DNA of 64,000 bases. It comes from Psammoneis japonica. Lineage: Eukaryota. Both the position numbers and the translations under genes were made by a program. Below the pieces are notes generated by a model. The model was given only the letters and a program-made list of their open reading frames with translations, was not told the origin of the DNA and did not search any database. Positions 6,335-64,000 of the stretch are shown here, piece by piece (the first letter of the stretch is position 1; every line of letters begins with the position of its first letter). The stretch spans positions 62,001-126,000 of the forward strand of contig QPGO01000201.1 in the NCBI GenBank assembly GCA_008632985.1, read 5' to 3'.

Positions 6335-7340
6335 ACATTTCCTAATCAACAAATATATTTTTATTTCCAGCACCAAAATTTCAATTTCACGTAGAACTAG
6401 CATGTAGATGTTGTAGGGGATTGGCAGCAGTCTCGAAATTGCCTTGCGCTTTCGAGCACTGGTTCGCTCGATGGACCGGCTGCGCTCTCATGGCACGGCC
6501 GGTTAAGTGTTTTGCCTCACGGGGAGGGACCCGGAGAGGCGTCTTGCAGTCAGGTGGATGTCAACTAAGTCTCATGTGCCCATCAGGGCCTGGAATTTCA
6601 ACTCGTTTTTCGGAATTTTGAAAAAATGGGACCTCGTTGGTCGGCGAAAGGAGGGGCAAACGGAGCGAGATTTTTCAAATCGGATGGATGGGTCTGACTT
6701 TTATGGACCAAGTGCAACACATGAAGGTGGGCGAGGAAACGATGGTTTCAGGATTCTGTCTGCGTTGCCATGCATGGAACACCGATCATGAAGTTGAGAC
6801 CAAAATTCGGAAAAAGAGCTCGTGACACACTGCACGATTGCACAAAAGCAAAAATGTCTCCAAAACGGTTCTGCAGATTTTTTATGATTCGTTCATGTTG
6901 TGCAGCTGAGTGAAAGAGATGTTTTGGAAACGAGAAAAGTGGGGGGATTCTGACTCGTTTTCGAGACAGAAGGCATTGAAGTTGTTAAAAAAATGGCACA
7001 AATGATGTCACTGTCACAAACAGCATGGTTCAATGGGGACGCCCAAGAAATGTAAAAGCAACATTGATGGATGAACAAATTACAGAAACATTTGCATTGT
7101 GTGTTGAGCAGCTGTGCTGTGAAACAATGGATCAATGAGGACAGGAGAGTGGGATCGTGCAAAGGAAAAAGAACGATGTTCAACAATTTGGAAATGTTGC
7201 AGTTGTGAAATTATAAAGAATTGACGTGCATTGGAAATTGGACAATCTTTGGTGTTTTGAAATCATGCAAATTGTGAAATGCAAAAGGTGTGACATGAAA
7301 TTGAACAGCTTTGCAATCTTTGTGCTCGTTTGGGAGAATT

Positions 7341-7781
7341 TTAAGCTCGTTCACCATGGATGCGTCGAGCCAGTTGAATGTCTTTAGGCACAAGAGTGGC
7401 TCGTTTTGCATGGATTGCACAAAGGTTTGTGTCCTCAAACAATCCAACAAGACATGCTTCGGAAGCTTCTTGAAGGGCGAGAACCGCGGCAGACTGGTGT
7501 CTTGGTTCTGCACTGTGGAAGAATTCAAATTGTCGCTCTCTGACAATGTTTTGTGCAAGTTCTCTGACAAGATGATGGAATGGAATCTTGCGGATCAACA
7601 AATCAGTTGATTTTTGATGTCGTCTGATTTCTCGTAAAGCAACAGCCCCAGGACGACAACGATGTCATTTTTTGACTTGGTTTCCAGAGGGCATGGCATT
7701 CCCAGCTGCTTCAGTTGTTGGCAATTTGGGTGGTCTTTTGTGCGGAACAGATCTGCGAGGAGGTTCTTTGACACGGGCCAT
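7341..7781 (-). pseudogene. Histone H3-like variant pseudogene (147 codons, internal TGA at 7665-7667)
   Basis: MARVKEPPRRS...[32 protein letters not shown]...[45 protein letters not shown]. Clear H3 histone fold with a divergent tail and an extended loop 1. Confidence 0.92.
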
Positions 7782-8219
7782 GGTGATTGAGAAACATGTC
7801 GAAAAAGAAACAGTTCGTGCAAATGAGAAGCGATGTCAATGTTTTTGGTGATGGAAGAAAAAATGCACCAGAGTCGATTCGTAGAAACATGGCAAAGCAC
7901 AAAAGTGCCACGCACCAGCCAATCAAAAACCGTGACCCATGGAATGAGACATTTGTTTGTTTGTGAAAAAGAGCTGTGTGTTTTGTCTCATCTGTGCAAA
8001 AGTCATTCACGATGTCATGAAAAAGAAAATGTGTCATTTTGTGTTGTGACTGATGAAATGCATCATTGGACAACCTCGTTTTGAAACGGCAAACGTTTCA
8101 ATTGCGAATTGAAAACATGCGTCAAGTGAAGGGTGTCACAGTTGAGTGATCGTGTTGCGACAGAGAGCAAGAACAAGAAGAAAACGATGGAATGTGCTGG
8201 AATTGCCAACGGAACGAAA

Positions 8220-11200
8220 AATGGACAATGTCAGAAATTGTCGACAAAGAAAGCGAAAGGCATTTGCAGGAAAGGTGCAGGAAATGAACCTTGGCAGAAA
8301 GCGACGCCATGAAGAAGAAACAAGAAATGGCTCTGGTTTTGCAAATGACAACGAAGTGTTGCAAGAACAAGAATCAAGCGAAAGTCCAAACGTGAGTGAT
8401 GCAAGTGTGAATCTGAACAATCTTCAACAACACACAGACGAAGAGGCAATTGATGAGACAATGTCGCACTCGGAGCATTCTGTTGCAATGGAAGAAGCCA
8501 CGGAGTTTGGGGTGTGTCGCAACTGTCACAGGACTCAAAATGGGGTGTGAAATGAAGGACCCATGCATGTGAGGGACACAGGATTACGTGTGGTGCCTTC
8601 AACCATTGTAAAAACTCGTTGGAAGTTCAGCAATTTGAAACCACGAGACATTCGAAATGAAAGGAACATTGTTGTTTGTCGTGAGTGTCGAGTGGCCATT
8701 TGCATTGCAGAAGATCTAAGCAACCATTTGTTGAGTCAGCATTGTTGGCCAGCACATGTTTGGAGGACTTTGGCTGATGAAGAAAACAGATGCAGATGCA
8801 GGTGCAAACTTTGGCGTTTGTCACCACGAGAATGGAGAGCCTGGTGGACAGATGAAATTTCGCAATTCAGAGAGTTTCAAAGAGTCACTTTGAGAAGGCC
8901 CAAACCTCATTTTGCGGAAGTGTCATTGGAACGGAACAATTTGATGAATGCAACAAACAAAATGCAGTGGTTGCCGTTGATGCGAGCTGTGGACAAAAGC
9001 AGCATGCCAACAGTCAAATGTCCTTGGGGATGTTCGGAATTCCTCAATGAAGTGCAAGACGCTCCATTTGACATCACATTTGGATGGTTTCTCAATGTCG
9101 TCTGGAAAAGAATGCTCGTTTTATGAGTGATCAAAAGCAGCCTGGGTTTCTCATTGGCATTCGCAGGAATTTTTTGGACTCGGATCATGACACTTTGTTG
9201 AATGAGTGCTGGCATTGTCTTCCGTCTGTTGCGTGCAAAGATGGCGAAGGACCAGTGGTGTTGACTTGCCGGTCCCACGACCAAGGAACGACAGACATGT
9301 GTGTTCACGTGCCAACAAATCCGACAGGACCATTTGTGTGCTCTTCATCAGATCAATTTGCCCCTGCGGTTTTGCGTCCAAAGAGCACGCGCATGGTTCA
9401 GTCTCATCAATGCAGCAACTCATTTCAATTGAACCGAATGACAGGCCATTGCAAAGGAGTTGATTCTGTCACAACATGCAATGAAGGCACTTGCAACATT
9501 GACAATGTCATTTCAAGGAATCGTGGCGCACTGTGCATCGCAGGACGAGATGACATGAAGAATCACGTGCGGTCACTTGGACAAGAAAAAAGGATTCCTG
9601 CATGGTCAGCTAAAGAAAAAGTGCGACAAGGAAATGCAAAATGTGACAAGGAAATGCTCAAGAAATTGTGGAAAAAACATGGAAAGGGTGCAACGTTTGT
9701 CCCACCAGAAGATGCGATCGAAGCAGAAACTCTGTTGAAGAACGATCGACCAATGCTTTTGTCTTTTCGAACTGAGGAAGGACAATTGAGAACTGTTCAA
9801 TGCAAGTGTCCGTGGACAAGAGTGTTGCTCCATGGTCATCCTGTCGACAAATGTGGAGCTGCTTTTCCCATCATTCGAGAACCACTTGCACATTCAGCAG
9901 ACACACGTGCACTGTGGATGACTCTTGCATTGCTTTCTTTGGTGAAAGAGAGTTGGAAAGCAGCAGCAGCATCGGCAAATGCCACAGAAACATGGCAAGG
10001 TTGGCTGTTGGTTGAAGCTGTGAAAAAGTGTTTTCCGCCAAAGAAGGTTGCAGGAACAAACCGCACTCCGTTCAAGAAAGGGATGAAAACAGAAAAGATT
10101 GTGGAAAACTTTTTCTGGACTTTGGGAAATGGATTGCATTGTGATCCGTCATTTGCATCTGAGTCATTTGCAAATGTTGAAGGCATTGTTGCTGTTCCTG
10201 CGTCATCAGACATTCTGGAGCATTTGCTGAGATTGAGCAGACAAACGCCATTGCGAAATGTCATTTTGCACACAGACTTGACTGACGGTAATGACTCCAT
10301 TTTCAATTTGACGGACAAGGTGCAGCTGGACAGTGGAGCTCTGGAGCTTCGGTTTGTGGCTGAGACGTTTCCTGCATTGAAAAATTGGAAAGGAAATCTG
10401 TGCAGTCGTCATGGAAAAGTGAGTCATCCCAAATGGTGGATGCAGGGCAAGGGAGATTTTGGTTGCACAAGACTGGAAGGATCCTTGCCGAACAATGTCC
10501 GAAATGGACATGACGTCGCAGTTTGTGCAGTTGAAGAAATTGGCAAGGACATGGAAAAGGCAAAAGAGGATCATTTGATTGACTGCGGAGGACAGGTCCT
10601 TGCCAAATGCGCTTTTCACAGGTGTCCGTCAGTGGTGGCTGTGGCAGACAATGGGGTTGTGTGTTCCCATTGTGACAAAGAAGCAAAGCATGTGTGTCTG
10701 ATTTGCGGTTGCAGAAATGGAATTTGCAACGACGAAATGAAAAGAACAATGGAACAGGGAAGAACTGCATGGGTTTCAGTCCAGCAAAATGGAAGAACTG
10801 TTGCAAATGCACCAGAAGAAGAAAATGAAAATGACAGCGGTTTTGACATGGAGCCGGAACCCAATGACGAAGACACCAATTTGGTCAACGACGATTGCCT
10901 TGCGATTGGCAATGAGTCGTCGTCGAGTGGTGCAACAACAAAACAATTTGACAAGTGCATTTGAAGAAGACAATGTGAATGTTGAGGATGCAACCCTTTT
11001 GCACGATGCAGCAGACGAGCAATTGGAAGAATCGATGTCAGTTGCAACAGACGCTTCTGAAGAAGGAATGCCTCCATTTCGAACAGGGAATGACAACAGC
11101 TGCGCTGTTGAAGAAGACACGGATTCAGACTCAATGGACGAAGATGCTTTTTATTTCCCGACAACAGATGCAGCTTGTGATCCTTTAAATTGCAGAGCTT

Positions 11201-14200
11201 CGAACATTTCTGCAGTGGGGCCACATGCAACATTTGACAAACATGGACAAGTGCTGGTGCGAGAATTGTCTCGGATGGAAGGGTCTCGGAATCAGAAACA
11301 TTTGTTGCAGTCCATTGTTGCAAAAGAAGGGCCAGGGAAAATTGTTCCCCTTGTTTGTCCCAAAGCCATGATCTTTCCGTCCTTTTTTTGGCACAGCACT
11401 CCAGACGGCTCTGTGCCTGGAGCCATGCCATGCAATTTGTCAACTGATGACAGGACTTTGCGTCATTGTGGATTTGCTGCCAACAGTGAAATGACCAGGA
11501 CAAGGTCATGCGACAACTCATTGCTGACTTCCACAGATCATCGATGCCATTTCTGTGCTTTTGACGGCAACTTAAATTTGGGTTTGAGAGGACAGGACAC
11601 AAGACTTGTCATTTCTAGAGGATTCAGAGAAATGCAAGGCAGTGGCGGTGCAAGAATTGCAACGGAAGAAGAAAAACGATTGCCATTGTTTGACATGGAT
11701 TCGAATGATTCTCGTGCCACAGTGAACAAGTTGGCGGTGGCGTTGGGTGAAAAAATGGGATCTGTCTTTTTGACCATCACTTGCAATGTGAATGAGCAAT
11801 TTGGAGTTCGTCAAATCAAACGTTGGCTGGACGATGATGCAGCCATGGACAAAGTGATCGAACGTGTGGTTGGGCACAACAGCGGGATTGGGCATTTGGA
11901 ACAGGAGCAGATTAAAAAGGACATTGTTTCAAGCACATGCAATCTGGCTTTGCGTTGTTGGACAAACGCAGTTAATTTGCACCTTGCCTGCATTGTGACA
12001 AGTCCAGAACGTCCGGCGGGAAAAGTGGATTTGAGTTGGTTTGCTCATGAGTTGCAACAAGACAAAGCAAACATGTCTCATTTGCATGGAATGTTGTGGT
12101 TGGCCGAAGATGATGGAGCCATTGAAGGAACACGACGAGTCATTGAACGCACTCAAGGATCCATTTCTTCAACAGTGCACTGTGAAGAGATTCGGCAGTG
12201 CAAGAATGAAGGCATTGTGTCACTGTGTGCTGAACTTGCAAACATCCTAGAGGCGTTGTCTGGGATTTTGCTGCACAAGCACAGTCGTCATTGTTTGGTG
12301 CCAATGAAGAAAACTGTTTTAGAAGGATGCATTCCTGGAGCGACTGCATGTGCAAACAACATTGTCAGCGGACGGAGTCGTTGCAAATCAACAGACAATC
12401 GAATGGTGAGCATAAATCCGTCACGACACACCTTTGCTGAAGTGACAGCAAAACACACAAAAGACGCTTTGACGATTCTGGAAGAAATTGGATTGGTTGA
12501 AATGACAGACTGTGAGAGATTCGCTGAACAAGGGCAAGGGCCTCGAGTTCATTTTGTGGAACAAGGTTTGATGGCAAGACGTCACATTCCTCCCACAGCT
12601 GCAGAAGATGGAACAGTGTCTCCTGTGATGGGCGCGCTGGCTGTGCGAAATCCGAGTTCTGCCAACGCACAACTCTTGGACAGCTTTGGAGTTTCGAGAC
12701 ATGTTGCAGGACATGTGACAGAGGCAGACCAGCGATGCCAAGTGAATTTGCGTCCTGCAAAAGCAACCGAAAAGGAATCTGCAACTGTCTCGTTTGTGGA
12801 AACAGGGAGCACCAAAATTGGCTCGGTTGCTGCAGAAGAAAGAAAACACAGCAAGAGCAAACGCAATCGAGCCGACAGAGATTGTAGACTTTTGATGCAA
12901 CCTGAAGTTTCAACACACAGTTTGGGAATTGCAAGCGTTCAGACCAACATGAAATGGGTTCACATTCCGTCTGTTCCATTGGAAGAGAGACCTGCACTCG
13001 ATCGTTCAAAGCCAATGACAGCTTTTAAAGATTTTGGACTGGCCACGAATGATGTTTCAGGCACATCCGACTCAGACACTGACAAGGTGTTGGCGAATCA
13101 AATGGCTCGAGAAACCGCATTTGTGAATTGTCCCGAATGGCGATTGTTTGCTGAATCTGCAATTGCCATCGTCAAGGATCAAATGTTTTCTCCATTGTCT
13201 GCTGACGGGATCAGCATCTTTGGGTTGCGACCTCCGGAACTGCATTTCGCACAGCACGTTGGAGCGCATTTGCGCTGTTTTGTTCGCGAGACAAAAGCCC
13301 TGGCTAAACCCACAGACATTGACTTGTTAGAAGAGAAATGCAAGGAGGCTTTGTCTCTTGAATGTTCTCTTTGTTCCTGGATTGACGGAACGCATCATGA
13401 GGCAAAGATGCGACTGTGTGCATTGCCATTGATTCTTGACTGTGCAAGAGCAGCTCCCGTTGAAGATTTTGGAAATGACGAAGCAGAAAAGGAATCAGTT
13501 GTTGCTTTTTTCAGTGCTGTTGTGAGCTGCATCTTGTTGACAAGTCTGATGCTGGCATTTGCAACTTTGACGATCTGTCAGACTGGATTTGCTGTCGATC
13601 GTTGTTCTTTGCCGAATTGAACGAATCGCATTGCCATTTCCGTGGTGCAGCAACACAAAGCCAAGTCACGCGCCTCGTTTCTTGTTGCATGCATTGTTGT
13701 CCATGGGATCACACTTGAATGAAGCAGAGCTGATGTCAACAGGATCTTTGCGAAATGCCTTCATCAAGGCACGTTTGTTGGATCTGAGCAATCCCGAAGA
13801 GAGTGCGCGAAAGACAATGAGGCGACATGCAATGGAACAGCTGAGGAAAACGCCAGGAGGGTGTGCTCAATTTGACCGATGTGTTTCTTTGGCATGCAAA
13901 GCTTTGTGTCAAGGGTTGGTTTTGAATCAGATGGCGCAAGACAGTCTTCCTGCATGCTTGCACACACACTTGCGACAGGAAACGAATGACAAAACAGAGA
14001 AACACATGGCAACAATTCAGAAACCTTTGCCATGGCCTTGGTTGAGGAAGGCCGCAAGATCAAGATTGGGAACTTGCCAAACGCCGATGCTCTTGCCAAT
14101 GCTTGATCAACGCCATTGTCACATCCAATGAACTGGATGATGTCAGAAAGAATGACGATCAAAGCGATGCTTCTCATGCTGAACAAAGAAAGGCATTGCG

Positions 14201-16041
14201 TCTCATGAAAGAGGCTGTTGATGATCACATGAATCCATTGTTGGATCATTGTCCAAAATCAACATGCGCCGTTGGTGACCCAGGTTCCGGGAAAACAACT
14301 GTGATGATGATCGGAGCTTTGCATGCCATGTCAAGAGGTTTGTCAGGACTGGCAACCGCATTGCTGCACAAGCGGTCCATCCAGTTGGGAGGCGACAATT
14401 TGCATCATTTCTTGGTGCTTCCTCCCAGGGAAGGAGACACTCCCAACAGAACAGCCAAACTGGCTCTTGCAAAACTGCGTCGTGATCCGTCCAGGATGGA
14501 ATTTGCTCATTGACTGGATTGCATGTGTCTTGATGAACAGGGACAATGGGCTTCTTTTTGCATTTCCGCATTTGACATTGTCCTTTGCCATGTTCGGAAC
14601 TGCAACCGGTTTCTTGGCGGGACACTGTTGATGTTGACAATGGACACATTGCAATTGACACCCATGCACGGATTGCCAATGCTCATGTCACCGCATGTGA
14701 TGACTTCTTTTAACTTTGCAAGGTTGCGAGAGTCTGTGCGAGCACTTGACGATCCGATTTTTGACGGATTCAACAAATGACTCGTCTTCTCCCAAGCAAA
14801 TCAAACAATGACATCAAGAAAGAGTTTTTCGATCTTGGCAAAAAAACATTCACGTTCGCAGACAGTTTTGATGATCGGCAATTCCATCAAATGCAACACA
14901 TGTTTTTGGAAAAAACGAACCAGGAAAAGTGGTGTTGCGGAATGAGGTTCAGAAACTACGACGAGAGAATGAACCAATGACAATTGCAATGGCTGTGGAC
15001 TGCGAAACAACCCTGAACAGAACATGGGCTAAAGCTTCGAAATCAACAACAATGAGATTGGACAACAAAGTCAAACAACCTCATTCGATGCACTTTTTTG
15101 AACAAGCTGCATGTGAAGTTGCCTGCTTCAAGGCAAAGGCTTTCAGCAATTGCCAAAGTGCCGCTCTTTTTGACATTCCCAGTCAGGAAGCTCTTGACGA
15201 ACAACGTCCTGTTGAGGTGCTTGTTGCTCCGCATGATCAACCTGACAGTGATCCAGGGATGGATTCTAGAGAAGACTTGTTGGCTGCAGGGTGGACGGTG
15301 CAGATGATGGGATTGGCGCCGGAACATCAGATTAGACTCGGACAAGGTTGTTTCGGAAAACGAAGACAGTGTGGTTTGAAACCTGGAATTGCAGGATCTT
15401 GCCATGCGGTGATGGGACAGACCTTGTTGGATCTTGTGTCAAAAGCAAATGAAGGAAAAGACAGTCTTTGCAGCACTTGGGAACGCAGACAAGTTGCAGC
15501 CCAATGGACCTGCTTTGCAGGGGATCCGGACAAAACAATGGAAGCATTGTGGAGCACTTTAACAAAAACCGATCAATGCATGCTGTGCACTTGTCGCTTG
15601 CCAGAGGCCATGTTGGCGGTTCAAGACAACGCGCCAATGCAAACAAACTCCGATGATCAACCTGCTCCGACACCGTTCGAGATGCCGAAGTGCCACCCTT
15701 GTCGACCAAAAGACATCGCGCTTCCCCAAGCAGAAAGTCCTTGTGCCTGTCTCCTTGTGTCTGTTCAAAGCCCTGAAATGACCTGCGTTGGACAAACCAA
15801 GGATCTTGGCAAAAGGATCATGCAACACAACAGTGGGTGCGGATCTTCCTCTGCTTGCTCTCACCTGCTTCGGCCATGGGGCATGTTGGCGCACGCAGTG
15901 GGATTTCACGATGACCCGCGAAGCAGACGTTTGTTCGAAAGACAATGGAAGTTGCTCCGAGCTCAAGAAAAACAGAGACTGCGAAGACCCTTGGAACCTC
16001 AAGAAACAGCTGATTTGGCACATCGCATCATCGCCTCTTGA
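8220..16041 (+). pseudogene. Disrupted ~2500-aa Rep/helicase/nuclease polyprotein of the Helitron-like element
   Basis: Successive + strand ORF pieces. Rep motif 1 VFLTITCN (11764), motif 2 HELQQDKANMSHLHGMLW (~12046), motif 3 RHVAGHV from YxxxY (~12700). Walker A GDPGSGKTT (14274), LDEQG, FLGGTLLMLTMDTLQLTP, CHAVMGQTL. GIY-YIG-like ACLLVS..TCVGQTKDLGKRIMQHNSG..RPW (~15745-15880). Confidence 0.8.
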
Positions 16042-47989: not shown

Positions 47990-48121
47990 GAAGGGGGCCG
48001 ACACGATACAGGTAGTTTTAATACATTAGATGAATGTACAAATGAACAACTGAATTACCATCGTACACGTGTTGTAGGCCAATCCCGTAAACGAGTTAAA
48101 AAGACTCATCTTACTCCAATC

Positions 48122-51230: not shown

Positions 51231-51258
51231 TCACTTAACGGCCCTGATCATGGGGGAG

Positions 51259-51685
51259 TGTGCAGTGTGCCTCGCTGCTGGACAACACGGCGAGACCGTG
51301 CATGAGCCTCTTGTGCATGGCAACGCAGTGTTGTTGACACGTGCCTGGGAAGCACGACCACAGGAGGGCGTGGCTCCAGGTCTTGGGCAATTCCAGAAGG
51401 ATGCTAAGAGAGCGTCCGTGTGAAGCACACTGGCCCGTCATCTGGCCCACGATGGCAGCGTGATTCCACACGATGACATCACTCGTGCATGGCGCGTGAT
51501 GGCTTGATTCGCACGATCCACAATGCGAACGCACGATCGATTTAATGCGATCCAAATGCGAACGAATGGGGATTTGGCAAGATTCCCTGTTCACACGATC
51601 CCATTTTCTCTACTCTAAACTAGCTCATAATTTTCACAACGACGAAGTCGTAACACATCTTCTTTTTCAGCGCCCAGTGCATGCA
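51259..51685 (+). repeat. Gypsy 3' LTR
   Basis: Follows the polypurine tract; direct repeat of 46446-46872. Confidence 0.85.
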
Positions 51686-53099
51686 CAGGGCAGATGCCCT
51701 GATCCAACATTTTGAGAGAAAGGTGCAATGAGACTTGCCCAACCATGGAGGGCAGCCTGCACCCACTTTTGCACAGTTGCAGCCGTTGGTCCAGTTGGTG
51801 GATGATTTGACCACGGAACAGCACCAGACATGTCTGGACAGTGCCGCCCATCAGCAGGCGGCTGACAGAGGCAAGACACCACACCAGTTCTTTGGAGAGC
51901 ACGGCGTGCTCAAGCTTGCGCGCCTTTGCCAAGTGTGGCAAGCCAACCAACTGCCTCCTGTGTGGGAAGGTTTAGCCGCAGTGCCAAAAGCAGGATGCCT
52001 CGCGGCGATCCAGAACATGTTCGATGAGCAGCGGCAGGCACAAGGCATTTGTTTCCCACTTGCGGTGTCCCCAGCACTTGCCACCAAGTTTGTGCAGCTC
52101 ACCTTCTCCGGCAGCAACCGAGACGATGTCATCCAGGGCATTGGCCCTTTCTTGTTCGGCCCATCTGTGCCCCAACAGGAAGAGCAGATTGCCCACCGCG
52201 TTGCACTCTGCAGACAGATTTGCAGTGGAGAAGGGGTCCCATCATTGGCCGACACGCTGGTCCTTGAAGCACCCGACGATGCAAAAGTTGCCACCACGGT
52301 CCAGGTGACCCAGCAATCTTTCGATGGTTTGAGGGTGGTCTCATCTGCGGCATTGGGAGCCGCGCACCCTGTCGCACGGCACCTCATGGAGGCACGCAGG
52401 GCGACAGACATGTGCACCAGCGACTCAGCAGTCCAAGCCCACCGGCACCCCACACTGCCCGCAGACCTCCAGCGACACATTCAAGTGGAACTGCTACACT
52501 GGTTCTGGCACCAGGAGGGGTTTGATCAACCTGTCCCATTTGCGGCCCGTCAGGTTGTAGCGGAAGCCACCAAGGGGTCCATGGCCTGGTGTCACGATTT
52601 GCCAGTGACCATCACAACACAGCCGGCTTCTGCTGGCACTGCCGTTGGCGCAGCACGCCCACTGACTACACCGGCACCAGCACCAGCATCCGCCATGCCG
52701 CTGGGGGACAACACGTCAGTGCGCAACGAGCACTGCGACAGCCGTTTCAATGAGATGCACACGTGTCCCAACATTCAATCCCATGATGTTAAGCAGCAAT
52801 GTGCGCGAGCTAATGTAGACCTCCCAACGGACTCCCGGGGAAACCCGCACTGCCTCCCCTTTCACATCAAAGGACAATGCAACACCAACTGTGGTTCCCG
52901 CTCAGATCACCGCGGGGGGCACACCCAGGAGGAGCAGGATGCACTGTGTGCCTGGGCGGACATGCATTAGAAGACTGAACAGGTCTTCGGCAATGGTCTG
53001 AGCACAGGGACTCCAGACTGACGGCCTCCTTGCGCCACTTGCAAGTGGCCACTTCGTGGACAGGCGATTGCCGCATCAGCTGCAGCTGACAATCAGGCA

Positions 53100-55080
53100 A
53101 GCTCATCGCACGTGACACCAAATTGCTTCGTCACAGAGGACTCAGCCAATTGTTGCGTCTTTGACACGGTCGAGGTGACCTGGGGCCCATGTGCATGCTC
53201 CACGGCCATCCCGCATGACGGATGCTCCAGGGATGCAAACGCCGCGGGGTGCCCATCACTGCAGCCGACGCTCCTTGGAGCACCGACAAGTTCCAGTGTC
53301 GAGAGGGGCCCACACAAGTCCGCTCACGAGCATTTCGAGTTCCTGCGCGAGGACATGGCTGATTGTGTGGAGCAAGGTCACTGGGTGGTCGCACCACACG
53401 ACGAGGTGAAAGATTTGCTGGGCTTGCGCATCAGTCCCATCGGTGTGTCCCACAACATGGGCGTCGCCCCCGACCCATTGTCAACTGCACCTTTTTTGGC
53501 ACAAACAATGCCACGCAACCCAACGCGCCCATCGAAGCAATGCAGTTCGGAAGAGCCTTTGACCGACTCTTGAGACGCATCTTGCTTGCCAATCCATGAC
53601 AAGGCCGGGTCCATCTGATGAAGATTGACCTGTCTGATGGCTTCTGCCACGTGACACTTGCACCAGAGCGCGCTCACGTCCCAGCCATGTCATTCCCCAG
53701 TTTGCCCGAGGAACCACCATTGGCAGCCATTCCCGCCAAGCTCCCTGTGGGGTGGAAAAATTCACCACCTGCCTTCTGTGCCGCTGCGGAAATGGGTGCT
53801 GACCTTGCCAACACTCTGCTCCTACAAAATTTTCAGGCTGTGCCACACTGCCTGGAGCACTTGGCGTGCAGCCGCCGTCCACCGCTGCGCCCGGCACCAC
53901 CGGCCACACCACCCCACATTGCGGTCCCAACACCAACCAACCCAGATCCGCACACACAACATCAGCGTCGCCGTCGCTTGCGCTGCGTGGAGATCTATGT
54001 CGATGACTGCATTGGAGCAGCTCAAGGCAACAAAGCCTGCCTCGCAACATTCATCACATGATCATGACCGCCATCGATGACGTCTTCCGCCCACTGGCCA
54101 AGGATGACCCACACCATCGCACCGAACCCATCTCCACAAAAAAGTTGAGAAAGGGCAATGCAGCATGGTCAACCCAAAAGGAAGTCTTGGGTTGGCTCAT
54201 CGATGCCCAGGCTGTGACCCTCCAACTCATGTGCCATCGACACACACACCTGCAACAGACTCTGCACCAGGACTTTCCCCGCCACAGAAAACGAGCCACC
54301 ACCACCGACCACCACAAGCTCCTTGGAGAACTCCGGTCCCTTTCCTTGGCCTTGACCGGCTCCCGTGGACTGTTCTCGGAACTCCAAGAAGCACTCTGCC
54401 ACACAACCCCAGATTCCCGGGTGCGCTTGACGGCCAACATCCATGCCATCCTGGATGATTTTGGGGACCTGCATTCCGACTTAGAGCTTTGCCCAGCTCG
54501 CATGCAGGAACTTGTCCCACTCCAGCCCACAGTGCACGGCTGTCATGATGCCGCGGACATGGTGCAGGTGGTGTTGTGCTGCCCACGCCAGCCACTGCAC
54601 CACACACCCAACGTCTGCGCTTCAGCCCACATGCCTTTCCCTTCCGATGTCACAGTGGATTTAGCCACCTGCGAGAACCCGCATGGCACCATCACCAACA
54701 CCGATCTGGAGCCAGCAGGGAGTTTTGTGCAAACTTGTGCCACCACGGAGTGTTTCGATGTCGTGAACACACACACCTCCAGCACACCGACAGTCTCGGC
54801 ACCATGTGCTGGCAATGCAAAGGCCCTTCCACGACCGTCAAGCCATGCTCCAAACTCCTCCGCGGCCAAGCATGCCACCAGCGTTTCCATCGTCACATTG
54901 CCTGCACGACCACCTGCCTGGCGACCTGAACGGCCCTGCTGATGACACGTCTTGTCTTCAATCATTGTCCAACATTGCCTTTTTGCACCATTTTAGCACC
55001 TGTTGTCCGCAGACCAAACCTTGGCGCTTGTGGACCCCGCCACGCGCACTGCATTCCTACGTGACCTCAGTGCTGCGCAG
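53100..55080 (+). pseudogene. Ngaro/DIRS reverse transcriptase-RNase H remnant
   Basis: RISPIG, MQFGRAF, MKIDLSDGFCHV, LPVGWKNSPPAFC, EIYVDDCIG, VLGWLID, GCHDAA, ITNTDLE across frameshifts. Confidence 0.8.
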
Positions 55081-56100
55081 CATGCCGTGTCCCACACCGT
55101 TGCCTCTTCAAGAGCCATGGCCGCCGACACCCACTGGAATCTGTGGGCTGCCTTTTGTCGAGAGTTGGCCCTCAACCCACTGCTCCAAAGCATCCCAGAC
55201 CCCGCACTCTACCTCCAAGTTTTCCTCCACCGTTTCCAGGTTGGCCGCATTGCACCCAGGGGAAATCCCGTCCATGGCCACACCGCTGAGGATGCCCTGC
55301 GGTCGGTTGGACAAAGGTTCACTGCAATGGGGGCCTTGGATCCATGGCTCACCCCACAAGGCGGCTTGAATTTCTGCCTTGCCCGCCAAATCCGATGTCA
55401 CAAGAAGGAGGATCCGCCCCCGGACCGCGTAAAAACCCACACCCGTCACAGTCCTCCTGTGGATTTTATCCGCTGCTGCGCCAGCCAGCACCCGGGCACT
55501 GGAGCCATTGCTGACATGACAGCTTTAGTTTGTTTCTTCCTCATGCACCCCGGTGAATGCACCACCCCTTTCCGACTCGCAGATTTGCATCTGTCGGCTG
55601 GTGGGGTGCACTTGGACCTTTTCAATTCACCCCTGGCCCAACTCACTGCTTCCACTTTTGCAACACTCACGTTCACCACCCAGAAAAATGGAGTTCATGG
55701 GGAAGTCATTGGATTGGGCCTTTCCGGCCATCCACAGCTTTGCCCAGTCAAAGCTGCCATCTGCCGGGTGACGCACCTGCGCGCCTCTGGTGCACACCCC
55801 AACACTCCCCTGTCGGTTTGCTCTTTAAATGGGCAGTGGTGTCGGGTTGCCCCCACCAACATCATGTCCATCCTCTGAGTTGCTGTCATGTCAATCGGCC
55901 ATCAATGCCTTGGCTTCACCCCCGATGATGTCTCCGCCCAATGCTTGCGTGCTGCCGGAGCCATGGGGCTGTTGTGTGCCCGAGTTGACACTGACATATG
56001 CGGCTCTTGGGCCGCTGGCACTCCGACGAAATGCTCCGATACCTCCACCTTCAAGTGGAGCCTGTCATGCAAGATTTCACCCGCCGCATGTTGGCCAGGG
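55003..56100 (+). pseudogene. Tyrosine recombinase remnant of the Ngaro/DIRS element
   Basis: FFLMHPGEC (from FF.LR.GEY), FTTQKN, LCPVKA, SAQCLRAAGA, LGRWHSDEMLRYLH. Confidence 0.82.
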
Positions 56101-57376
56101 GTGACTTCGCCCTCCATCCAAATGCTGAAGCACCTTTGGCTCCCGACCAACCTGTGTGAGCGCCACCAGCCCTCCAGCCAGACCCACCCACCCTCCCAAG
56201 TCCATGCCACCTCCGCTGCACTCTGCGCAGCTCCCTCTGGCATTGCGGTGCTGGAGGCCCTTGCCAACGCATTCCAGCCCTAGGTGGGAGCTCGCAGCAC
56301 TGACGTGTGACAACAACAATTTTTGTCATCCGTCGCATGTTTCGTGCACAGATTTCTGCGTGTGACATTTAAAAAACATTGTCCAGACTCGCTGTTTTGC
56401 AAAGCCCCAGACGTTTTATGTGACAAATTTATAGAAACAACAATGCGCCAGTTACATTCTTCAATGTCTGAAGAATGTAACTGGCCAAGTAAAAAATGAT
56501 GTGCTTCAATCATGTGCGAGTTTGTGCGTTCGCAAAATTGCCTCATTTTCTGTTGGCGATCATTGACATTTTAATTGCCGTGCAATTTCACTGTGGAGCT
56601 CGCACGTAGAAGTCCACGGGCCCAATGTCACACGGATTCCCACCCAAGTCTGGAACGCATCTGCCGTCCAGCTTTGGGTTTGGGAGATGCCTTTCCCAGG
56701 GCCAGCAAAGCCGTCTCCACTCCTGCTTCCATTCGTGGTCCTGCATTTGCAAGTTTGCCAGTTTGCTGTTTTTCTAAAATCTCGATGCATCGGACAAACG
56801 AGAAAAGCGGCGACAGCAGCTGTCCTCGAGCAATCCGGAAAGCGAGATTCCTCATTCCGTTGAAAGTTCTGGAAGAGGCTCGGGTTGCTGACTGCCCGCC
56901 ATCGGCAGTCATTCTCATTCTTTCAAGAACGACAACAGCAACAGTCGTTGGATGGTTTTTAACGCTCCCACCTCTCCCACCCTCTGGAGGCCCTTGCCGT
57001 CCAGCTTTGGGTTTGGGAGACGCCTTTCCCAGGGCCAGTAAAGCCATCTCCACTCCTGCTTCCATTCGTGGTCCTACATTTGCAAGTTTGCTAGTTTACT
57101 GTTTCTAAAATCTCGATGCATCGGATAAACCAAAACGAGAAAAGCGGCGTAACGCGCGCCGGCCGGCTGCAGAAAAACTTGTCCGAAGAAATTGCTGCAG
57201 GTTTGCTAACCACCTCTACTGTTGGGGGAAATGATGATGCTCACATCTCACATCTCACATCATATTAATATATACCGGTACAATAAAACCACACATCCCA
57301 TCGAAACCACAGAGCATTCAGTGGAAGTGCTGATGCCAGTGGTAGTGCTGATAGGCTTGTCTTTCTGTGTAATGTC

Positions 57377-58399
57377 ATGACAGACTTGCGGTGTCTTTCC
57401 AAGAAGTGTCTCGGTTGGAGAAGGAGGATTCTTCTTGCTTTCATCAGCCTTGTTGTGAGTTCCGCCTTTGAACGAAGACTTGCATTGCGGCCCATGAAAC
57501 CCATTCTTCATAACAAGAATATCAACAACAAAAAGCACTGCCAAGAAATCATGGCAGTGTGTACCGATGATCCACGAGCAGTCGAACGATGGCTGAATCG
57601 AAATCTCCGGGAAAATTATGTTGGATTTGATCTCGAGGTGAGTCCAGTTAGTCTTTTTAATAGCTTGTTTACAGAAAATCTAAAGTATGCATGCATTGTC
57701 TACTAGTCCGTCCCCGATCTCCCTTGGAAGTCATACAAGTACACTGGTCCCGCAACGATGCAGCTTGCTACGGTAGATTCTGCCATTGTCATTGTGATTG
57801 CCGATTCCTTCACTGGTCCGAATCGCAAGGTCTTGCCACTCTTGGGAGACTTGCTAGCGGATGAATCACTCTTGAAAACAGGTGTCGGAATTCATGGAGA
57901 CATGGTGGAACTCCATCAATGGCAGCCAGCCTATTTTGACTCGATTCATGGCAGATTTGATATGGGTGGTATCGGAGGTATCAATCCAGGACATCAACAA
58001 TCTTTGAAACGGCTTAGTGAAGATGTTTTGCATGTGGAATTGTTCAAATCCAGAAAGATTGCCCTAAGCAATTGGGCACGGAGTCGCTTGACGGATCAGC
58101 AATTGAATTATGCGGCGCGAGATGCCTGGGCAGCGGCGGCCATTGTTCATGAAATATTATCCAAGGGAATACGCTCCAGTGACGAAATAGCAGATTGGAT
58201 CCAAGAACATGAGATCCCCATTGATGAATTTATGAGAAGATCCATGGAACGCAAGGAATGCCGACTCCGTTACAAGCAAATCAAGCGTTTGGAAGAGTTT
58301 CAGCAAGAGGCTGAGGAATTGTTCCAAAAAATGAGTCAGCTTGCTCCACCACGGCCAATGGTGATTGAATATAAGAAAGACAAAGACGACAAGCAGTGA
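57377..58399 (+). CDS. WRN/EXD2-like DEDDy 3'-5' exonuclease; intron 57638-57706
   Basis: YVGFDLE|SVPD..PATMQLAT, LKTGVGIHGD, SLKRL, LSNW, QLNYAARDAW. gtgagt...ctag intron keeps the frame. Confidence 0.88.
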
Positions 58400-59062
58400 C
58401 GATATTCTGTGTCCGACAATAACTACTGTCTATTCCGCGAAATCATGGCTGAAGGAATGCCAATTCTTGGCTCGAGAAACGTCGAGCATGTACTTTGTGG
58501 GAAAGATTGCGTACTTCTGCTGAATTTCCCAGCTGCAATGATCACCTTCCGTTGACTCGTATAGTTCAGTTGGTTATTCCTAAGCCCCGATGGTCTACTA
58601 TTGGGAGGTGGATGTGACTGAAAAGTGAATGCGGACAACAATTGAGAATTGAGAGACATGAAGAAGCTGCAGTGAGACCGTGGGAGGACCAAACGAAGTT
58701 GTCTGGTCACAGACAAGGCGAAGCACTCCACGCATGTTGCAAATCTTCATTGAGGCGGACCCAAAGAGGCGGTTCGTGGCCAGGAGCTCTAAACAGTGAA
58801 AGTGAGCGTCAATGTGTATGTATATATTGAAGCCAGCTTTCCTTCATTTTTTGGACCTCGCTTATCATTATTTGTTGTTTTTATTACATGGTGGTCTGAA
58901 TATTTGAACCCTTCCTCTCTAGAAGTAGACAATAGACGAATCTGTGACGTCGGGGGATAAAGAAAAGTTAGACCCTAGATGTACAGTAAGCGGCAGAGCA
59001 CGCACTTTTCAACTACAACTGTTGTATTGTTCGCATAAAGAAGAAGTATGCATCAGTCGAAA

Positions 59063-59869
59063 CTAGTACTGCCCGGTCGGTTTCCTCATGGCCAATCTTC
59101 TCAATTCATCCACGCTGGGTATATTTCCGTCATCATCGGTTAGTCTTCCCGTCTGACGATAATCCGTGACGGCAATACCCATTTCCGAAACAGCCAGCAT
59201 GGCCCGGTCTCTATCTTGCCGCTCAATGGCTTTTCCAAAGACACCGCATTGTGTTTCATAAGCTTTGCAGTCGGCCATCATTTGCTTGGCGTACGAATTG
59301 CTCATGCCAAGGCCTTGTCCGTCCAAACTCGATACGTATAGTTTCATTGGCAAAATGGCATTGTCTGCCGTCTTGTAAAATTCCGATACCCCTTCCCAAT
59401 TGCCATCGTCAATCATGGGTGGAACAACTGTGATGGTGTTGCTCACTTTTTGAATCCGAGGGAGATAACGCTTTTTGGCTGTGGGATAGTAATACGCTGT
59501 TGATTGATTGGAAAAAAGATGGATACGGCATGAGTGACTCGAAACAAATCAAGACCTTTAGATTTTTTGAATGAGAAAAGAAATGGAAAACGTACATGCT
59601 CGCAGAGTCGGGTCGATTCCTTTATCTCCTTTTTGTCCCTTGGCAATCACAACGGTGGAGGACTGGTCCTTTTGTACAATTTTGTTGGGATCCGCACCAA
59701 ATTCATCCAACAAACCCGCCTGTGCTGCACTCGGAGCCGCCGCAGTAGCTGCCGCAGCAGTCGCCACGGATTGAAGGAGGCTTCGTCGGTCCATGGAGCC
59801 TGGGACCAACGCCACAGACGAGGCCACAAACATGGATGCCACAATCGTAGAAGTCAAAACAAGTTTCAT
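59063..59869 (-). CDS. Probable plastid thylakoid-lumen protein of unknown function; intron 59497-59595
   Basis: Signal peptide MKLVLTSTIVASMFVASSVA, twin-Arg DRRSLL, Ala-rich segment ending AQA. gtacgt...acag intron joins to SYYYPTAKKRYLPRIQK in frame with ORF 59063-59446. Confidence 0.75.
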
Positions 59870-60199
59870 GGCTTTGCGCTCTTCTTCTTTTAAGTTGAAA
59901 TGGAGATGAACAAAAGGATTTGTGACATCCAATGCTCGCAGATGTTCTGTCGACAACGCACCACGTCGATTGCATTGGCCGCTTGCGTTTTCTTCTGCTG
60001 TTATTGTTTTGTGAGAAAGGTGAGGGGTGACGTGGCTCCATCCGACCGCGCGAGATCGCGCATGCCACAGACGACGGCTCTGAATGGAGGAGTGGATGCA
60101 TGGACAGACCGTGTTGGAGGGAGTTTCTGAATTTTCGAAAATTGTTCGGAAGCCACCAGCCACTCAACATGACGTTGAAGGCTCACAAATAATATAATG

Positions 60200-63100
60200 G
60201 CTGACATGGATACAGTCACGACTCAACGTCATTCTGGTCGCATCTCACGACTGCAACCCAGACTCAGATTTTCTCTTCGAAACAATTGGCTCATCACAAA
60301 ATCGATTCAAACAGAAGCAACGACATTCGTCATAATTTCTAGACAACGACTTTCAACAAGCGTCTGTTTACCTCTGTCGCTGTTCACATTGCTGCCAACC
60401 TCCGAGGTCTTGCCCATCCCACTCAGCTGCAGGGCTGCATCTCGACTGGTTGCAGAGCCCAATTTGTGCGTTGACGAGAGCTCCTGACCGAGTCATCGTC
60501 ACGGACGCTTTCGGTTTTTGATTTTGAAGCAAACCCGGGAAATAGCTGAGTCTCTCTCGCTTCTCTCGTCTTCACTCTAACAAGAACCTCCCATGCTGCA
60601 CTCTCTGTCATGGCTGCCATCGATCCAGATGTTCTGGCGAAGGCGTTTGCCGATGCAATGGCCGCCAACGCCGCGGCGACCGCTCCTCCGGCTCCAACCA
60701 AGCCGTTACGTGGTGGAATTCACCCAACCCACGGGGTTTACATTGGTGGTTCCAAACTCAACAACAACTGCGAACAATCCAATGATAGAACCTGCCGGCT
60801 CGCCTCTCAGCGCCGTCATCCCAAGGCTCTCGACTCGATAGAACGATCTCTCCGCGATCAACAAGCTTCCGCAATGACTTCCAAGTTCAACGGTCGACTT
60901 GAGATTTCAGATGGTCCCATCAACGAGCTTGACAAGGACCATTTCGTCAAGACTGTTCGAGATCTGGTGGAAGCCCACGGTCAGCAGACGTTCTGCCATG
61001 TCAAGGACAGCGACGACAAGGTTCAATGTGTCTTCGACCATCTTCACGAGTTTACTGTGACCGATCTCGTGAACGAGTGCACGGTTGGGAAAGCAGCTGC
61101 CGATGATGCCAAGTACGACGAGATCAAGCTCGACGACATCGGGCTCTCTCAACTTCTCGTTCACTCAAGAATCACCAATGCCTTTCGCGAGAAAATCGAG
61201 ACCAAGTTCAACCATCTTTCGGACTGCCAAGACTGCCCTGGATCTGTTCCATTCATGATGGCTCTCGATGCTTGCAATGCTGGTGCTCTGACGGATGTTG
61301 AGACGGCTGAGAAGCAGCTAGAAGACCTCAGTTTGGTTGACTGTCCCAGCGAGGATTGCACGGACTTTGCTGCCGAAGCTCTTCGCATCGTGAAAATCAT
61401 GCAGACCGACTGCGCGCTTCCGGCGAACACAAGCTCCAAGCTGCTCCACAAGATCTCCTCTGCGTCCTCTGAGTGCTTCAATCGCCGAGTCTACAACAAG
61501 CTCAACGACGTCAAGGCCATGGAACGCAAGCACCGCCTCAAGAATCCTGCTGACATCGTGTCCGACAGCGATCACAGAACGCTCGGACCGGTCGGCATCA
61601 TTGCGTGGATTCAAGAGCAACACAACGAACTCGTGAAGGACAGGGAATGGCCTGCATTGGCAGCCAAGCTACCCGAGAGTAATCTTTCGACTACGGATGA
61701 CCCTGTGAAGACGAAGCACTGTCATGGTTGCGGTCTCGAGGGGCACACCAAGAAGACGTGTCCGAAGTGCAACGCCAAACCGCCGCGCGACGATCCTCCT
61801 CCCAATCCGCCGCCTGCAGACGACCCTTCCAGGAAGAAGAGGCGACCCATCGCTGCCTGGCGCACTAAATTTGACGGAGAAACGAAGAAGGATAAGAATG
61901 GCAAGGAATGGAAGTGGTGTGCCACGTGCAAGGCGAAGGGTGCCGACAAACCTGGAATCTGCCAGAAGCACTCTACCGCGGAACATGCCGACGACCGCAG
62001 GCAACCTCCCAAGGAGACCCCAGCAGGGAATTTGTCTTCCGTTGCTGATCCGGACAGTGGCGTGCCCATGGGTCCGCCCGCTCAGACTACCAAGGAACCA
62101 GAGGGAGACGAATCCGACCCCAACGAGTTGGTTTTCACGGGAATGTGGTGCGCGGCTACGGATCCCGTTGCCGACCCGGATTTCTGTTCCGCCCCTGTCA
62201 CTGCTGCAATTATTGTCACTCCGGCTTCCGAGAGGGAGAGCGACACAGTCGTTAGCACTGAGGTGGTTTGCATCGAAACGAGCCCACCTGTGCTCACCTC
62301 AGTCGTGGATCCAGTCGTGTCTCCCATCGTGGTTGAGACTGTCACTCCCGAAGACGCCGATGACTTCTGCGAATGCTCCGACGCTTTCTCTACCTTTGAA
62401 AACGAACCACCGGCTATTGAGTTGTTTCCGGCCTCGAAGCTGTGCTCTGTCGAGCATCCGGATGAGTTCTTTGACGCTCCCGCACATTTGACGGATGTGC
62501 TGTCAGACGACACCAAGTTAGATCTCATCCTTGAACACGACGTACACTTTGAAGACGCATGCTACGACTTGCCTCCGTGTGTTACGTATCGTGGCTTCGA
62601 TTTCTACGATCCAGAGGTCCTGGATGCGGATGATTGTCACGAGGACGTCGAAGACGAGCCCACTTCGCGTCGCTCACTCTTGGGTCGAGTCAAGCCATTC
62701 ATACTCTGGCTCGCCGCCATGTTTTGGGAAACGGCACTGCATCTTTGCTTTGCTCCGATCCCATGTATCCCTCGAGCTCTACGCCGCCAGCGCAAACTCC
62801 CAACTTTGCACGGGTTTCCAGCCTCCTGGATGGTCCTGTCCGTTGCAGTGATGGCATGGTCAGCAGTTTACGCCGGTCAACAGCCCGAGTGTCCATTCTC
62901 GAACGTGCCAAGTCGTTTTTCGACCGCCAGCTCTCAAGTCTACCACATTGTGGAAGAGCTAGATGACCGGATAGTGTCAGATACGGGGTCACTGTTCGAA
63001 TGTCACAGGATCAAAGGCACGCAAGTGCTCACCGAGTTTGTCGCGCGCCATCCGTCACACGCACTGAGCACTCGTCTCAAGGCCTGCTGGGAGAGCCAGA

Positions 63101-64000
63101 AGTAGCTGAACGGTCTGATGCGATAGACGAATCAGCCTTCTTTGACACCCATGAGGAACTGGAACCTCTCGACGACCAGAAGCATTTCTTTGACGCTCTT
63201 GAGGACTTCAGCCCGGATTTCTTCCGGTTTGACGAGCTCTGTCTGCCGCATCACATCGTGGACACTGCCCATTTTCAAGATCCTGTGGAACTGTTGGAGG
63301 AAGCAAGTGTTAGACCAGTCGTCTATGACACCTCCACCATCCAACTGCTCACCGGACAATCACAAGCCGACCTCCTTGCATCCGATCCGCAGGCACTCAT
63401 CGGTCTGTCGGACGAGGCTCTCACGGTCGTCATGGACACTGGTGCCACGTTAGCCATCACCCCCGATGAAGATGATTTTACGGGGCCTGTGACTGTTCCC
63501 AAGAAACCCTTGCAGATCAATGGGATTGCCAACGGTCTTGCCATCCAGGGTGCCGGTCCGGTTGCGTGGGTGTTCACAACGCCGAGTGGGGCTGCCATCC
63601 AACTGAACACCATGGCATGCTACGTCCCTGGAGCCCGTCAGCGCCTGCCATCGCCTCAACGCCTCTTCAACGAAGAGAAGGGGGTACGTGGGAAGTGTGA
63701 GGGCGATGAAACCACTTTCCGTTTACAAATTGACGGGATGGGCAAGTTGGTCGTGCCATGTCATCCATCAAGCCACTCACCCATTGCGTCGATGACCAAG
63801 GGCGCATCTGCCGCTCCTCAAGTGAACCTTCAGATCCTTATCGAGGAGAATCAAAACCTCACGGCAGGCCAAAAGCTTCTTCTCGAAATGCACGCCCGTT
63901 TTGGCCATTTGAACTTTGGTCGCGTCCAAGCACTTCTCCGCGCAGTTCCGTTCCTTTCGAACCGTTTCAAGTCCGCAGCGAAGTGTGACCACCCAAGATG
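60200..64000 (+). mobile_element. Ty1/Copia-like LTR retrotransposon, 5' part (gag, protease, start of integrase region); runs off the window
   Basis: 831-aa gag-like ORF 60610-63105 with CHGCGLEGHTKKTC and WKWCATC..H knuckles. Protease VVMDTGAT (~63430) is followed by HARFGHLNF (GAG-pre-integrase, ~63890), the Copia order. LTR limits not resolved. Confidence 0.82.

Follow-up and report, generated by a model that had tools for sequence, protein, structure and literature searches.

What strips the dinucleotide TpA (written TA below) from long stretches of a genome while the genes lying between those stretches keep an ordinary composition? This question is raised by a 64,000-nucleotide (nt) piece of DNA from Psammoneis japonica (contig QPGO01000201.1 of assembly GCA_008632985.1, positions 62,001 to 126,000 of the forward strand), which we refer to as the window and number from its first letter. 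An earlier note, made from the letters of this DNA, had seen transposons almost devoid of TA and rich in TG and CA interleaved with host genes of normal TA content, and had proposed a genome-defence process. Having examined composition, protein homologs, repeated copies and read contigs, we consider it highly probable that the pattern as a whole is best explained by a host process that mutates integrated transposon copies at TA, converting A:T to G:C, by what would be deamination of adenine. The segments on which the comparison rests are these:

6884 to 23845, unstranded: TA-erased block 1, with 57 TA in 16,962 nt (observed-to-expected ratio, o/e, 0.05) and CpG o/e 0.67; it contains an H3-like copy, Helitron-like open reading frames (ORFs) and an unclassified right half.
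30831 to 34056, unstranded: TA-erased block 2, unclassified, with 15 TA (o/e 0.08) and two read-contig versions about 8% apart.
39127 to 45241, unstranded: TA-erased block 3a, unclassified, with 18 TA (o/e 0.05) and the lowest CpG o/e, 0.32.
45242 to 56966, plus strand: outer element resembling a long terminal repeat (LTR) element, with terminal repeats at 45242-45392 and 56816-56966 that are 92% identical, and a reverse transcriptase (RT) fragment at 53600-54058.
46446 to 51692, plus strand: inner gypsy element, with LTRs at 46446-46879 and 51259-51692 that are 92.6% identical, encoding protease, RT, RNase H and integrase.
47321 to 49038, plus strand: unmutated island in the inner gypsy element, with 106 TA (o/e 0.94) and CpG o/e 1.19.
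23900 to 30600, unstranded: host control segment with Patched/sterol-sensing, GDSL lipase and fasciclin genes, normal in TA and covered by spliced RNA-type contigs.

Pooling the TA-erased DNA (6.9-23.8, 30.8-34.1, 39.1-47.3 and 49.0-57.0 kb; 36,304 nt) yields 161 TA, an o/e of 0.07, with TG at 1.66, CA at 1.58 and CG at 0.64. The pooled host DNA, in which the control segment is joined by 1-6400, 34100-38900 and 57000-60000 (20,903 nt), has 902 TA at an o/e of 0.61, with TG at 1.19, CA at 1.15 and CG at 0.93, in agreement with what the earlier note had described; were TA as frequent as in host DNA, a count no higher than 161 would have a binomial probability that underflows to 0. At the scale of one-kb windows, TA o/e is 0.00-0.10 in all 16 windows with starts from 7001 to 22001, 0.02-0.17 for starts 31001-33001, 0.01-0.15 for 39001-46001 and 0.05-0.23 for 49001-56001, as against 0.36-0.74 in host windows (1-6000, 24001-30001, 34001-38001 and 57001-59001), and the ratios of TG and CA lie at 1.3-2.0 across the depleted windows. 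The entire window has 1244 TA, the longest gap between them being 2358 nt (20594-22952). In terms of dinucleotide frequency, the blocks differ from host DNA by -0.0387 in TA, -0.0117 in CG and +0.0566 in TG plus CA, and from the unmutated gypsy island by -0.0573, -0.0299 and +0.0837, respectively, with the dinucleotides other than these four shifting little between blocks and host. It is one dinucleotide that is chiefly lost, and its balance is made up by TG and CA.

The blocks are sharply bounded on one side each (23845/23857, 34056/34075 and 56960/57039) and graded over 300-500 nt on the opposite side (6414-6883, 30547-30830 and 38873-39126). Some borders are accordingly steps of less than 100 nt, and the flanking host DNA in this window has normal TA. 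A scan within the window bore out the claim that the loss is confined to transposon-derived blocks, since host genes and host intergenic DNA alike are spared. This sparing bears directly on the possibility that no dedicated system is at work, and that a spontaneous or light-induced TpA lesion merely goes unrepaired in silent chromatin or a TA-poor composition was inherited or selected. Such a passive process would find support in the CpG decay of the blocks (o/e 0.64 over all blocks, down to 0.32 at 39.1-45.2 kb), as expected for silent DNA that carries 5-methylcytosine (5mC). TA loss and CpG loss were not correlated across 37 one-kb windows (Spearman's rho 0.21, P 0.21). Against a passive origin stand the untranscribed host intergenic DNA beside the blocks, which has normal TA up to these abrupt border steps, and the estimate from the LTRs given below; we find an origin of this kind scarcely credible.

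We then examined the direction of the change by comparing the predicted proteins of the affected elements with their homologs. Besides the inner gypsy element, the comparison drew on three further features:

7344 to 7664, minus strand: H3-like pseudogene (Pfam Histone, E 2.3e-31), with 3/3 core Tyr replaced.
9072 to 16038, plus strand: remains of a giant Helitron-like ORF, with homologs that carry GIY-YIG and PIF1 domains and a GIY-YIG of its own at 14875-16038.
60190 to 64000, plus strand: start of a Copia-like gag/pol, partly converted, with 53 TA (o/e 0.27) and CpG o/e 1.00.

For the gypsy pol, the first 40 of 120 listed homologs were aligned and columns with at least 70% agreement among at least 30 sequences were taken as conserved. 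The TA-poor part of pol has 480 such columns, 364 identical to the consensus and 116 changed. Of 25 conserved Tyr positions, 22 now encode Cys or His (TGT 7, TGC 3, CAT 7, CAC 5), one is still Tyr and two are other residues; conserved Arg, by comparison, is kept at 29 of 35 positions, three of the remainder being the His or Trp that CpG decay produces. One TA to TG or CA step suffices for 57 of these changes, CpG decay for six, another transition for seven and a transversion for 14, with 32 requiring several steps. TA loss is in clear excess over other transitions, and CpG decay is minor (6 of 116 columns as opposed to 57). The earlier contention that neither RIP (repeat-induced point mutation, the fungal process) nor 5mC decay can give this pattern is supported. 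The H3-like copy, set against solved H3 chains, has tgt, cat and tgt (C/H/C) at all three aligned core Tyr positions, and the following motifs of the earlier note are present as claimed, namely HRCRPG, RRHQ and EACL in the H3-like copy and MGCHH, HSDD and two Cys at the NYYRD site in gypsy. In the Helitron-like ORF at 10741-13617, aligned with 30 of 150 listed matches chosen for greatest query coverage, none of 11 conserved Tyr is kept and seven have become Cys or His. The Copia-like ORF at 60550-63102 has only three homologs, and the 13 columns that are Tyr in all of them hold three Tyr, six Cys or His and four other residues.

The destruction of conserved Tyr codons means that the TA-poor state was neither inherited nor selected. 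Furthermore, 80 relatives of the gypsy element from environmental data have a TA o/e of 0.51-1.18 (median 0.775), so the family was not TA-poor from the outset; a value of at least 0.51 in every relative stands against inherited TA-poverty in particular. The polarity is from TA to TG or CA, each a single A>G or T>C event on one or the other strand, as had been asserted earlier, and it is seen alike in Tyr codons, in the frequency balance and in the LTR pair of the inner gypsy element.

The two LTRs of a retrotransposon are identical at insertion, and their differences therefore record what happened afterwards. In the inner gypsy pair, 34 of 434 columns differ: eight TG/CA doublets, six sites with TA in one copy and TG or CA in the other, eight with CG versus TG or CA, two other transitions, two indel columns and no transversion. 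TA-type sites (the eight doublets and six singles) account for 14 of the 24 substitution sites. At all six single TA sites the 3' LTR keeps TA while the 5' LTR has TG or CA; the two LTRs retain one and seven TA, and 29 and 31 CpG. As CpG is plentiful while TA is nearly gone, most of the doublets must stem from a TA that was hit separately in each LTR, on different strands. We did not take TG/CA doublets alone as proof of a TA ancestor, because an ancestral CG yields the same doublet; polarity was drawn from the homologs and from copies that still hold TA. An estimate, as opposed to a measurement, of the rates assumes that invisible double hits on the same strand are as many as the visible doublets, and gives about 23 ancestral TA sites, of which 22 and 16 were converted (about 83%), the changed share being about 12% for CpG and about 0.3% for all remaining sites; the gap between the first and last of these figures speaks against a passive process. 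Since the LTRs differ almost solely at sites derived from TA or CG, the change arose in the chromosome, on both strands.

The same observations bear on an ADAR-like A-to-I editing of transposon RNA followed by reverse transcription and reinsertion. ADAR favours an A that follows U (according to work cited in bioRxiv 10.64898/2026.01.13.699255), and several of the affected elements are retrotransposons, both of which would suit such a route. Yet the events in gypsy are equally shared between sense (27) and antisense (30), as are those in the Helitron-like ORF (7 and 8); a Helitron-like DNA element and the H3-like copy are hit as well; the two LTRs have come to differ at TA sites since the element integrated; and a duplicate lying just beyond a block kept its TA (see below). 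On the grounds of action on both strands, LTR divergence after integration and the presence of a DNA transposon among the targets, we exclude transposon RNA editing as the source, barring a vanishingly small chance.

Two sets of repeated copies, at and outside block borders, bear on the polarity and on the role of repetition. The first straddles a block border:

56638 to 57149, plus strand: direct duplicate over the block border, with one TA in the inside copy (56638-56812) and six in the outside copy (56975-57149).

These 175-nt copies have four sites at which TA outside faces TG or CA inside. The second is a foldback at 4717-6334, directly to the left of block 1, whose arms measure about 800 nt (90% alike over the inner 285 nt) and have normal TA (35 and 33 per arm); its inner arms differ by seven transversions, eight other transitions and four TA-type differences, i.e., an ordinary spectrum. 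As the foldback and the outer duplicate have been spared, repetition alone would be insufficient as a trigger.

The TA that survive in the blocks are not a random sample. Writing Y for pyrimidine and R for purine, the 161 residual block TA comprise 91 in the context YTAR (TTAA 39, CTAA 23, TTAG 22), 65 with one favourable half and five in RTAY, as compared to 143, 492 and 267, respectively, among the 902 host TA. Tetramer survival fits a one-sided rule, TAY > TAG >> TAA, with TG gains greatest before C; its equivalent for the opposite strand is RTA > CTA >> TTA. One consequence of the loss concerns stop triplets, which fall, counted per kb on both strands, from 8.8 in host DNA to 2.2 in the blocks for TAA and from 9.8 to 1.2 for TAG. 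Because TAA and TAG have been erased, the blocks are full of long overlapping ORFs on both strands that are nearly free of Tyr. No Tyr-free protein occurs among the 120 gypsy matches (minimum 2.9% Tyr) or the 150 Helitron-like matches (minimum 1.1%).

The context rule also lends itself to a different chemistry acting in the same targeted hypermutation, one that starts at the thymine, for example a TET/JBP-type modification of T at RTA, with misrepair or mispairing leading to C. In its favour, TpA is a palindromic step, so that every A>G event is a T>C event on the complementary strand, and the rule can just as well be stated as RTA > CTA >> TTA. Nothing in the sequence speaks against it; the authors of a preprint on a comparable process in Bigelowiella natans, discussed below, favour adenine deamination and an ADAT2 homolog, by inference only, in its text. 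We consider the thymine route unlikely, while giving it some weight, and continue with the deamination of adenine.

A more mundane explanation is that a modified base was misread, in base calling or assembly, and that the genome still has TA. To begin with, the codon and LTR evidence within the window would look alike in this case, and the library type of the public run used as support (X1) is off record, with the run perhaps coming from the same sample as the assembly. X1 contains 88% of sampled words from 28000-36000, and its contigs, which we examined over 24001-44000, reproduce the TA-free sequence. One contig of 8058 nt, at a k-mer depth of 56.1, runs from host DNA (34026) to 42081 and includes 3.2 kb of TA-free sequence, with 12 differences and two gaps relative to the window; a 6313-nt host contig has a depth of 57. 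The crossing of the border between host and TA-free DNA by exact 31-mers, unbroken and at the full flanking host depth of about 56, disfavours a base that is read differently on the two strands, as such strand-dependent misreading would split contigs. Moreover, a single round of replication turns a base with the pairing of G into a true G. An artefact is in our judgement very improbable. The same contig carries 39.1-42.08 kb, which runs into host DNA at full depth and is single-copy among the contigs yet fully erased; repetition is therefore perhaps not needed, although partners may have been lost.

Block 2 presents a different picture in X1, its contigs being short and falling into two versions that differ by about 8% and each reach roughly half the depth of host DNA. 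At 33408-33785, for instance, one version has no differences at a depth of 27 and the other has 32 differences at a depth of 30.1, the sum matching the host depth of 57. All listed contig differences amount to 280 transitions and 46 transversions, and many are TG/CA doublets or CG versus TG or CA. The two versions may be alleles that diverged by 8% in place, with paralogous copies as the alternative; if they are alleles, with flanks less than 0.1% different, hypermutation would be continuing in place. Separately, an X1 contig (depth 57.7) links 30574 to 33899, skipping 3324 nt, and could represent an allele without the block-2 insertion, though only 35 letters lie on its shorter side and the letters in between are marked 'not known'.

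Several points weigh against the proposed host process or blur its details. The foremost is the island, for the process as stated does not account for an untouched 1.7-kb segment in an element both of whose LTRs were hit after insertion. The inner gypsy element is a mosaic, with the 5' LTR and the start of gag erased, 47321-49038 untouched and the remainder erased. In the island all five conserved Tyr are kept, and its right border lies between 48968 and 49049, a step of at most 80 nt within a continuous pol frame. The distance to the family consensus is alike in both parts: 122 of 136 columns are identical in the island (90%), and (364+57+6)/480 in the erased part (89%) when TA and CpG steps are discounted. 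The island could stem from later gene conversion by an intact copy or could be a chimera of assembly or polishing; it may also be a segment that the guide of the process did not cover.

Further such points concern the alignments, the context and the strands. Alignment noise is appreciable, with 46 of the 116 changed gypsy columns needing a transversion or several steps, and the preference for C at +1 is weak in the 57 polarised events (10 versus 3 discordant pairs). Strand choice in gypsy is clustered, with 19 runs versus 29.4 expected (P 0.003), which suggests tract-wise action of the mutator; this clustering is absent in the Helitron-like set (P 0.15) and in unpolarised strings of TG and CA (z -1.6 to +2.4). 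A>G and T>C chemistry look the same in sequence, TpA being palindromic. None of the 80 environmental gypsy relatives is erased, in a sample made up of best matches for which one of the two search patterns contained two Tyr. The sequencing platform of X1 is off record in the same way as its library type, and contigs instead of raw reads were compared. Finally, Pfam searches of 164 ORFs of at least 100 aa and 129 ORFs of 62-99 aa found no recognisable protein domain at 16-23.8, 30.8-34.1 and 39.1-45.2 kb, and the 'transposon' label of the three unclassified blocks is a provisional one, based on composition and extra contig depth.

As to the identity of the elements, the earlier count of five affected transposon classes stands in part. 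The element at 46446-51692 is, as judged from its sequence, a gypsy (Ty3) LTR retrotransposon, with Pfam matches to RVP/gag-asp_proteas, RVT_1, RT_RNaseH_2, Integrase_H2C2 and rve in Ty3-type order between two LTRs. It interrupts the outer, second RT-bearing LTR-like element, at whose right end the TA-erased state stops; tblastn with 20 gypsy homologs gave no match in the outer element at 51693-56966, beyond 60 kb or before 46 kb. The tentative Helitron-like assignment draws on homologs of 1800-2900 aa matched by the ORF at 10741-13617, five of which were scanned, with GIY-YIG in three and a PIF1 helicase in two (one also with Ulp1), and on the window's own GIY-YIG (14875-16038, E 9.8e-05) and a weak helicase match (14046-14510, E 0.03); the Pfam Helitron Rep domain has no match in the 9072-16038 region. 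The H3-like copy (7344-7790) has an N-terminal tail unlike that of canonical H3, a stop upstream of the HRCRPG site and, within the histone fold, an insertion of 10 residues. It may have been captured by an element, or it may be a host gene that the process reached by spreading. The Copia-like element is affected by partial conversion, as had been noted for 60.2-64 kb, and with its CpG o/e of 1.00 it has not been erased in the manner of the blocks. Twenty of its 53 remaining TA are CTAC or TTAC, mostly in Tyr codons, unlike the YTAR residue of the saturated blocks, and this may reflect selection on an element that was still active. A Harbinger-type element, the remaining class that had been named, was not found: the 164 and 129 ORFs searched with Pfam contain no such transposase domain. 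The unclassified blocks likewise gave no match in PHROGs (16 ORFs) or the PDB (3 ORFs).

The genes between the blocks are those of an ordinary eukaryote. A 3-oxoacid CoA-transferase gene at 1847-3112 has its closest named relatives in pennate diatoms (Nitzschia, Cylindrotheca and Seminavis), with identities of 68-79% over the top ten matches and 68-75% to the named diatom proteins; it is from this one gene that we describe the host as diatom-like. Other host ORFs code for a proteasome subunit, Patched/sterol-sensing, GDSL lipase and fasciclin proteins, a phospholipase D (PLD) plus alpha/beta-hydrolase protein and an FkbM-type methyltransferase; in the PLD case a single 770-aa ORF at 35011-37323 joins PLD-type phospholipase motifs to an alpha/beta-hydrolase domain. 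A contig from a second run (X2) over 24301-30407 omits 25582-25661, 25714-25798, 26821-26938, 27137-27217 and 29349-29433. As these five skipped stretches have CT..AC ends, X2 would represent spliced RNA of minus-strand host genes, though it is listed as 'DNA?', and its joints mark out five short introns that, read on the minus strand, begin with GT and end with AG. No X2 contig falls on the transposon blocks within 24001-44000, which we do not read as evidence on expression.

The earlier note had known of no described system of this kind, a statement overtaken by a preprint of 2026 in which viral DNA integrated in the B. natans genome is reported to undergo A/T>G/C hypermutation at TpA only (Mettrop et al., bioRxiv 10.64898/2026.01.13.699255). 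As described there, the mutation rate of two such viral regions in mutation-accumulation lines exceeds that of the remaining genome about 1000-fold; the changes are almost solely A>G and T>C, all on TpA, and the process is active in only some lines. TpA-poor, CpA- and TpG-rich clusters of that genome are enriched for reverse-transcriptase and DDE domains, and the authors propose, but do not show, adenine deamination and name an ADAT2 homolog (bioRxiv 10.64898/2026.01.13.699255). At the level of sequence features our window matches this process, in that only TpA is hit, the products are TpG and CpA, either strand is affected, the bias is toward G:C and host DNA is spared; it differs in host lineage, target and degree. 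The host there is a chlorarachniophyte and here a diatom-like stramenopile, neither diatoms nor stramenopiles being mentioned in the preprint's main text; the targets are giant-virus and virophage inserts there, and LTR and Helitron-like transposons here; the nucleocytoplasmic large DNA virus region has a TpA o/e of 0.45, whereas the blocks are saturated at 0.07; and the rate was measured there but is inferred from LTR divergence here. Our window shows an RTAY/YTAR context, sharply drawn borders and an island left untouched, features that do not occur in the preprint's main text. In the literature covered, which leaves aside subscription journals, this preprint was the sole report of TpA-directed A/T>G/C hypermutation, and there was nothing for diatoms.

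To our knowledge, fungal RIP, a C>T process, is the only case in which a defence against transposons through point mutations has been characterised in depth. RIP creates TA and stop codons. The change is from C:G to T:A, mainly CpA to TpA (see also PMC2621366). RIP of ascomycetes resembles the pattern described here in being a point-mutation defence on integrated mobile DNA that is dinucleotide-specific, acts on both strands and has fairly sharp borders and saturation. The direction is opposite, with TA destroyed and stops removed here (TA o/e 0.07, TG 1.66, CA 1.58); the process is like RIP in logic and its opposite in chemistry. The APOBECs give C>T or G>A, mostly on cDNA during reverse transcription. 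The AID/APOBEC enzymes, which act on retroelement and viral DNA, offer a parallel as a defence that deaminates bases in DNA enzymatically, in a short context and possibly in strand-coordinated runs (weak here), and differ in that the changes in the window are A>G or T>C, took place after integration and also hit a DNA transposon. The CpG decay of 5mC transposons is likewise present in the blocks, gives TG and CA and accounts for eight LTR differences, but it cannot remove TA and is minor here (6 versus 57 columns; -0.0117 versus -0.0387 in frequency). TadA and ADAT2/ADAT3 deaminate an A that follows U or T (position 34 after U33), the natural loop of TadA being U-A-C-G. DNA activity is reported for evolved TadA, from which the engineered adenine base editors derive. 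The U-A-C-G loop fits the preference for TAY seen here, with the difference that the natural substrate is RNA. ADAT2 of amphioxus and of trypanosomes is likewise reported to act on DNA (work cited in bioRxiv 10.64898/2026.01.13.699255).

In light of these comparisons, the process that we propose would run as follows. A guide would recognise a transposon mark, which might be chromatin or 5mC, small RNA, or homology, and a TadA/ADAT2-like deaminase would convert adenine to hypoxanthine in DNA. Owing to the palindromic TA step, a hit on the top-strand A would leave TG and a hit on the bottom-strand A would leave CA. RTAY sites would be converted fastest and YTAR sites, above all TTAA, slowest, and conversion would come near saturation within an element, halting at or close to the element's ends. 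Genes would be killed by missense (Tyr to Cys or His, Ile to Thr or Met, Val to Ala, Leu to Ser), with TAA and TAG removed and no new in-frame stops formed. The moderate CpG decay of the same blocks fits with methylated, silenced DNA, and transposons are reported to carry 5mC in diatoms (PMC9998398). The polarity, the specificity for TA, the action on both strands and after integration, and the sparing of host DNA are borne out by the sequence; the deaminase and its guide are our proposal. Going beyond this, we tentatively raise the possibility, with rather more doubt than confidence, that diatoms, and perhaps lineages across the stramenopile-alveolate-rhizarian (SAR) assemblage, have a RIP-like defence of opposite chemistry in which a guided adenine deaminase reads RTAY and acts in strand-wise tracts on integrated mobile DNA until hardly any TA remains, that the island marks the limit of the guide, as a segment lacking a homologous partner or a small RNA, and is no product of later repair, and that transposon lineages such as the Copia-like one, whose TA is nearly confined to YTAC Tyr codons, may be evolving away from TA in response.

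The occurrence of the same footprint in a saturated form in a diatom-like genome means that the process is not peculiar to one alga. The erasure of TAA and TAG leaves long false ORFs in six frames and Tyr-free proteins, by which gene callers and domain searches are misled. Leads for the enzyme hunt are provided by the preferred RTAY and refractory TTAA contexts, the action on both strands after integration and the sharp borders. For base editing, too, a deaminase of this kind, acting on adenine in DNA under sequence guidance in nature, would be of interest if real. The process may shape the decay of transposons, GC content and the annotation of genes in one of the major groups of primary producers in the sea.

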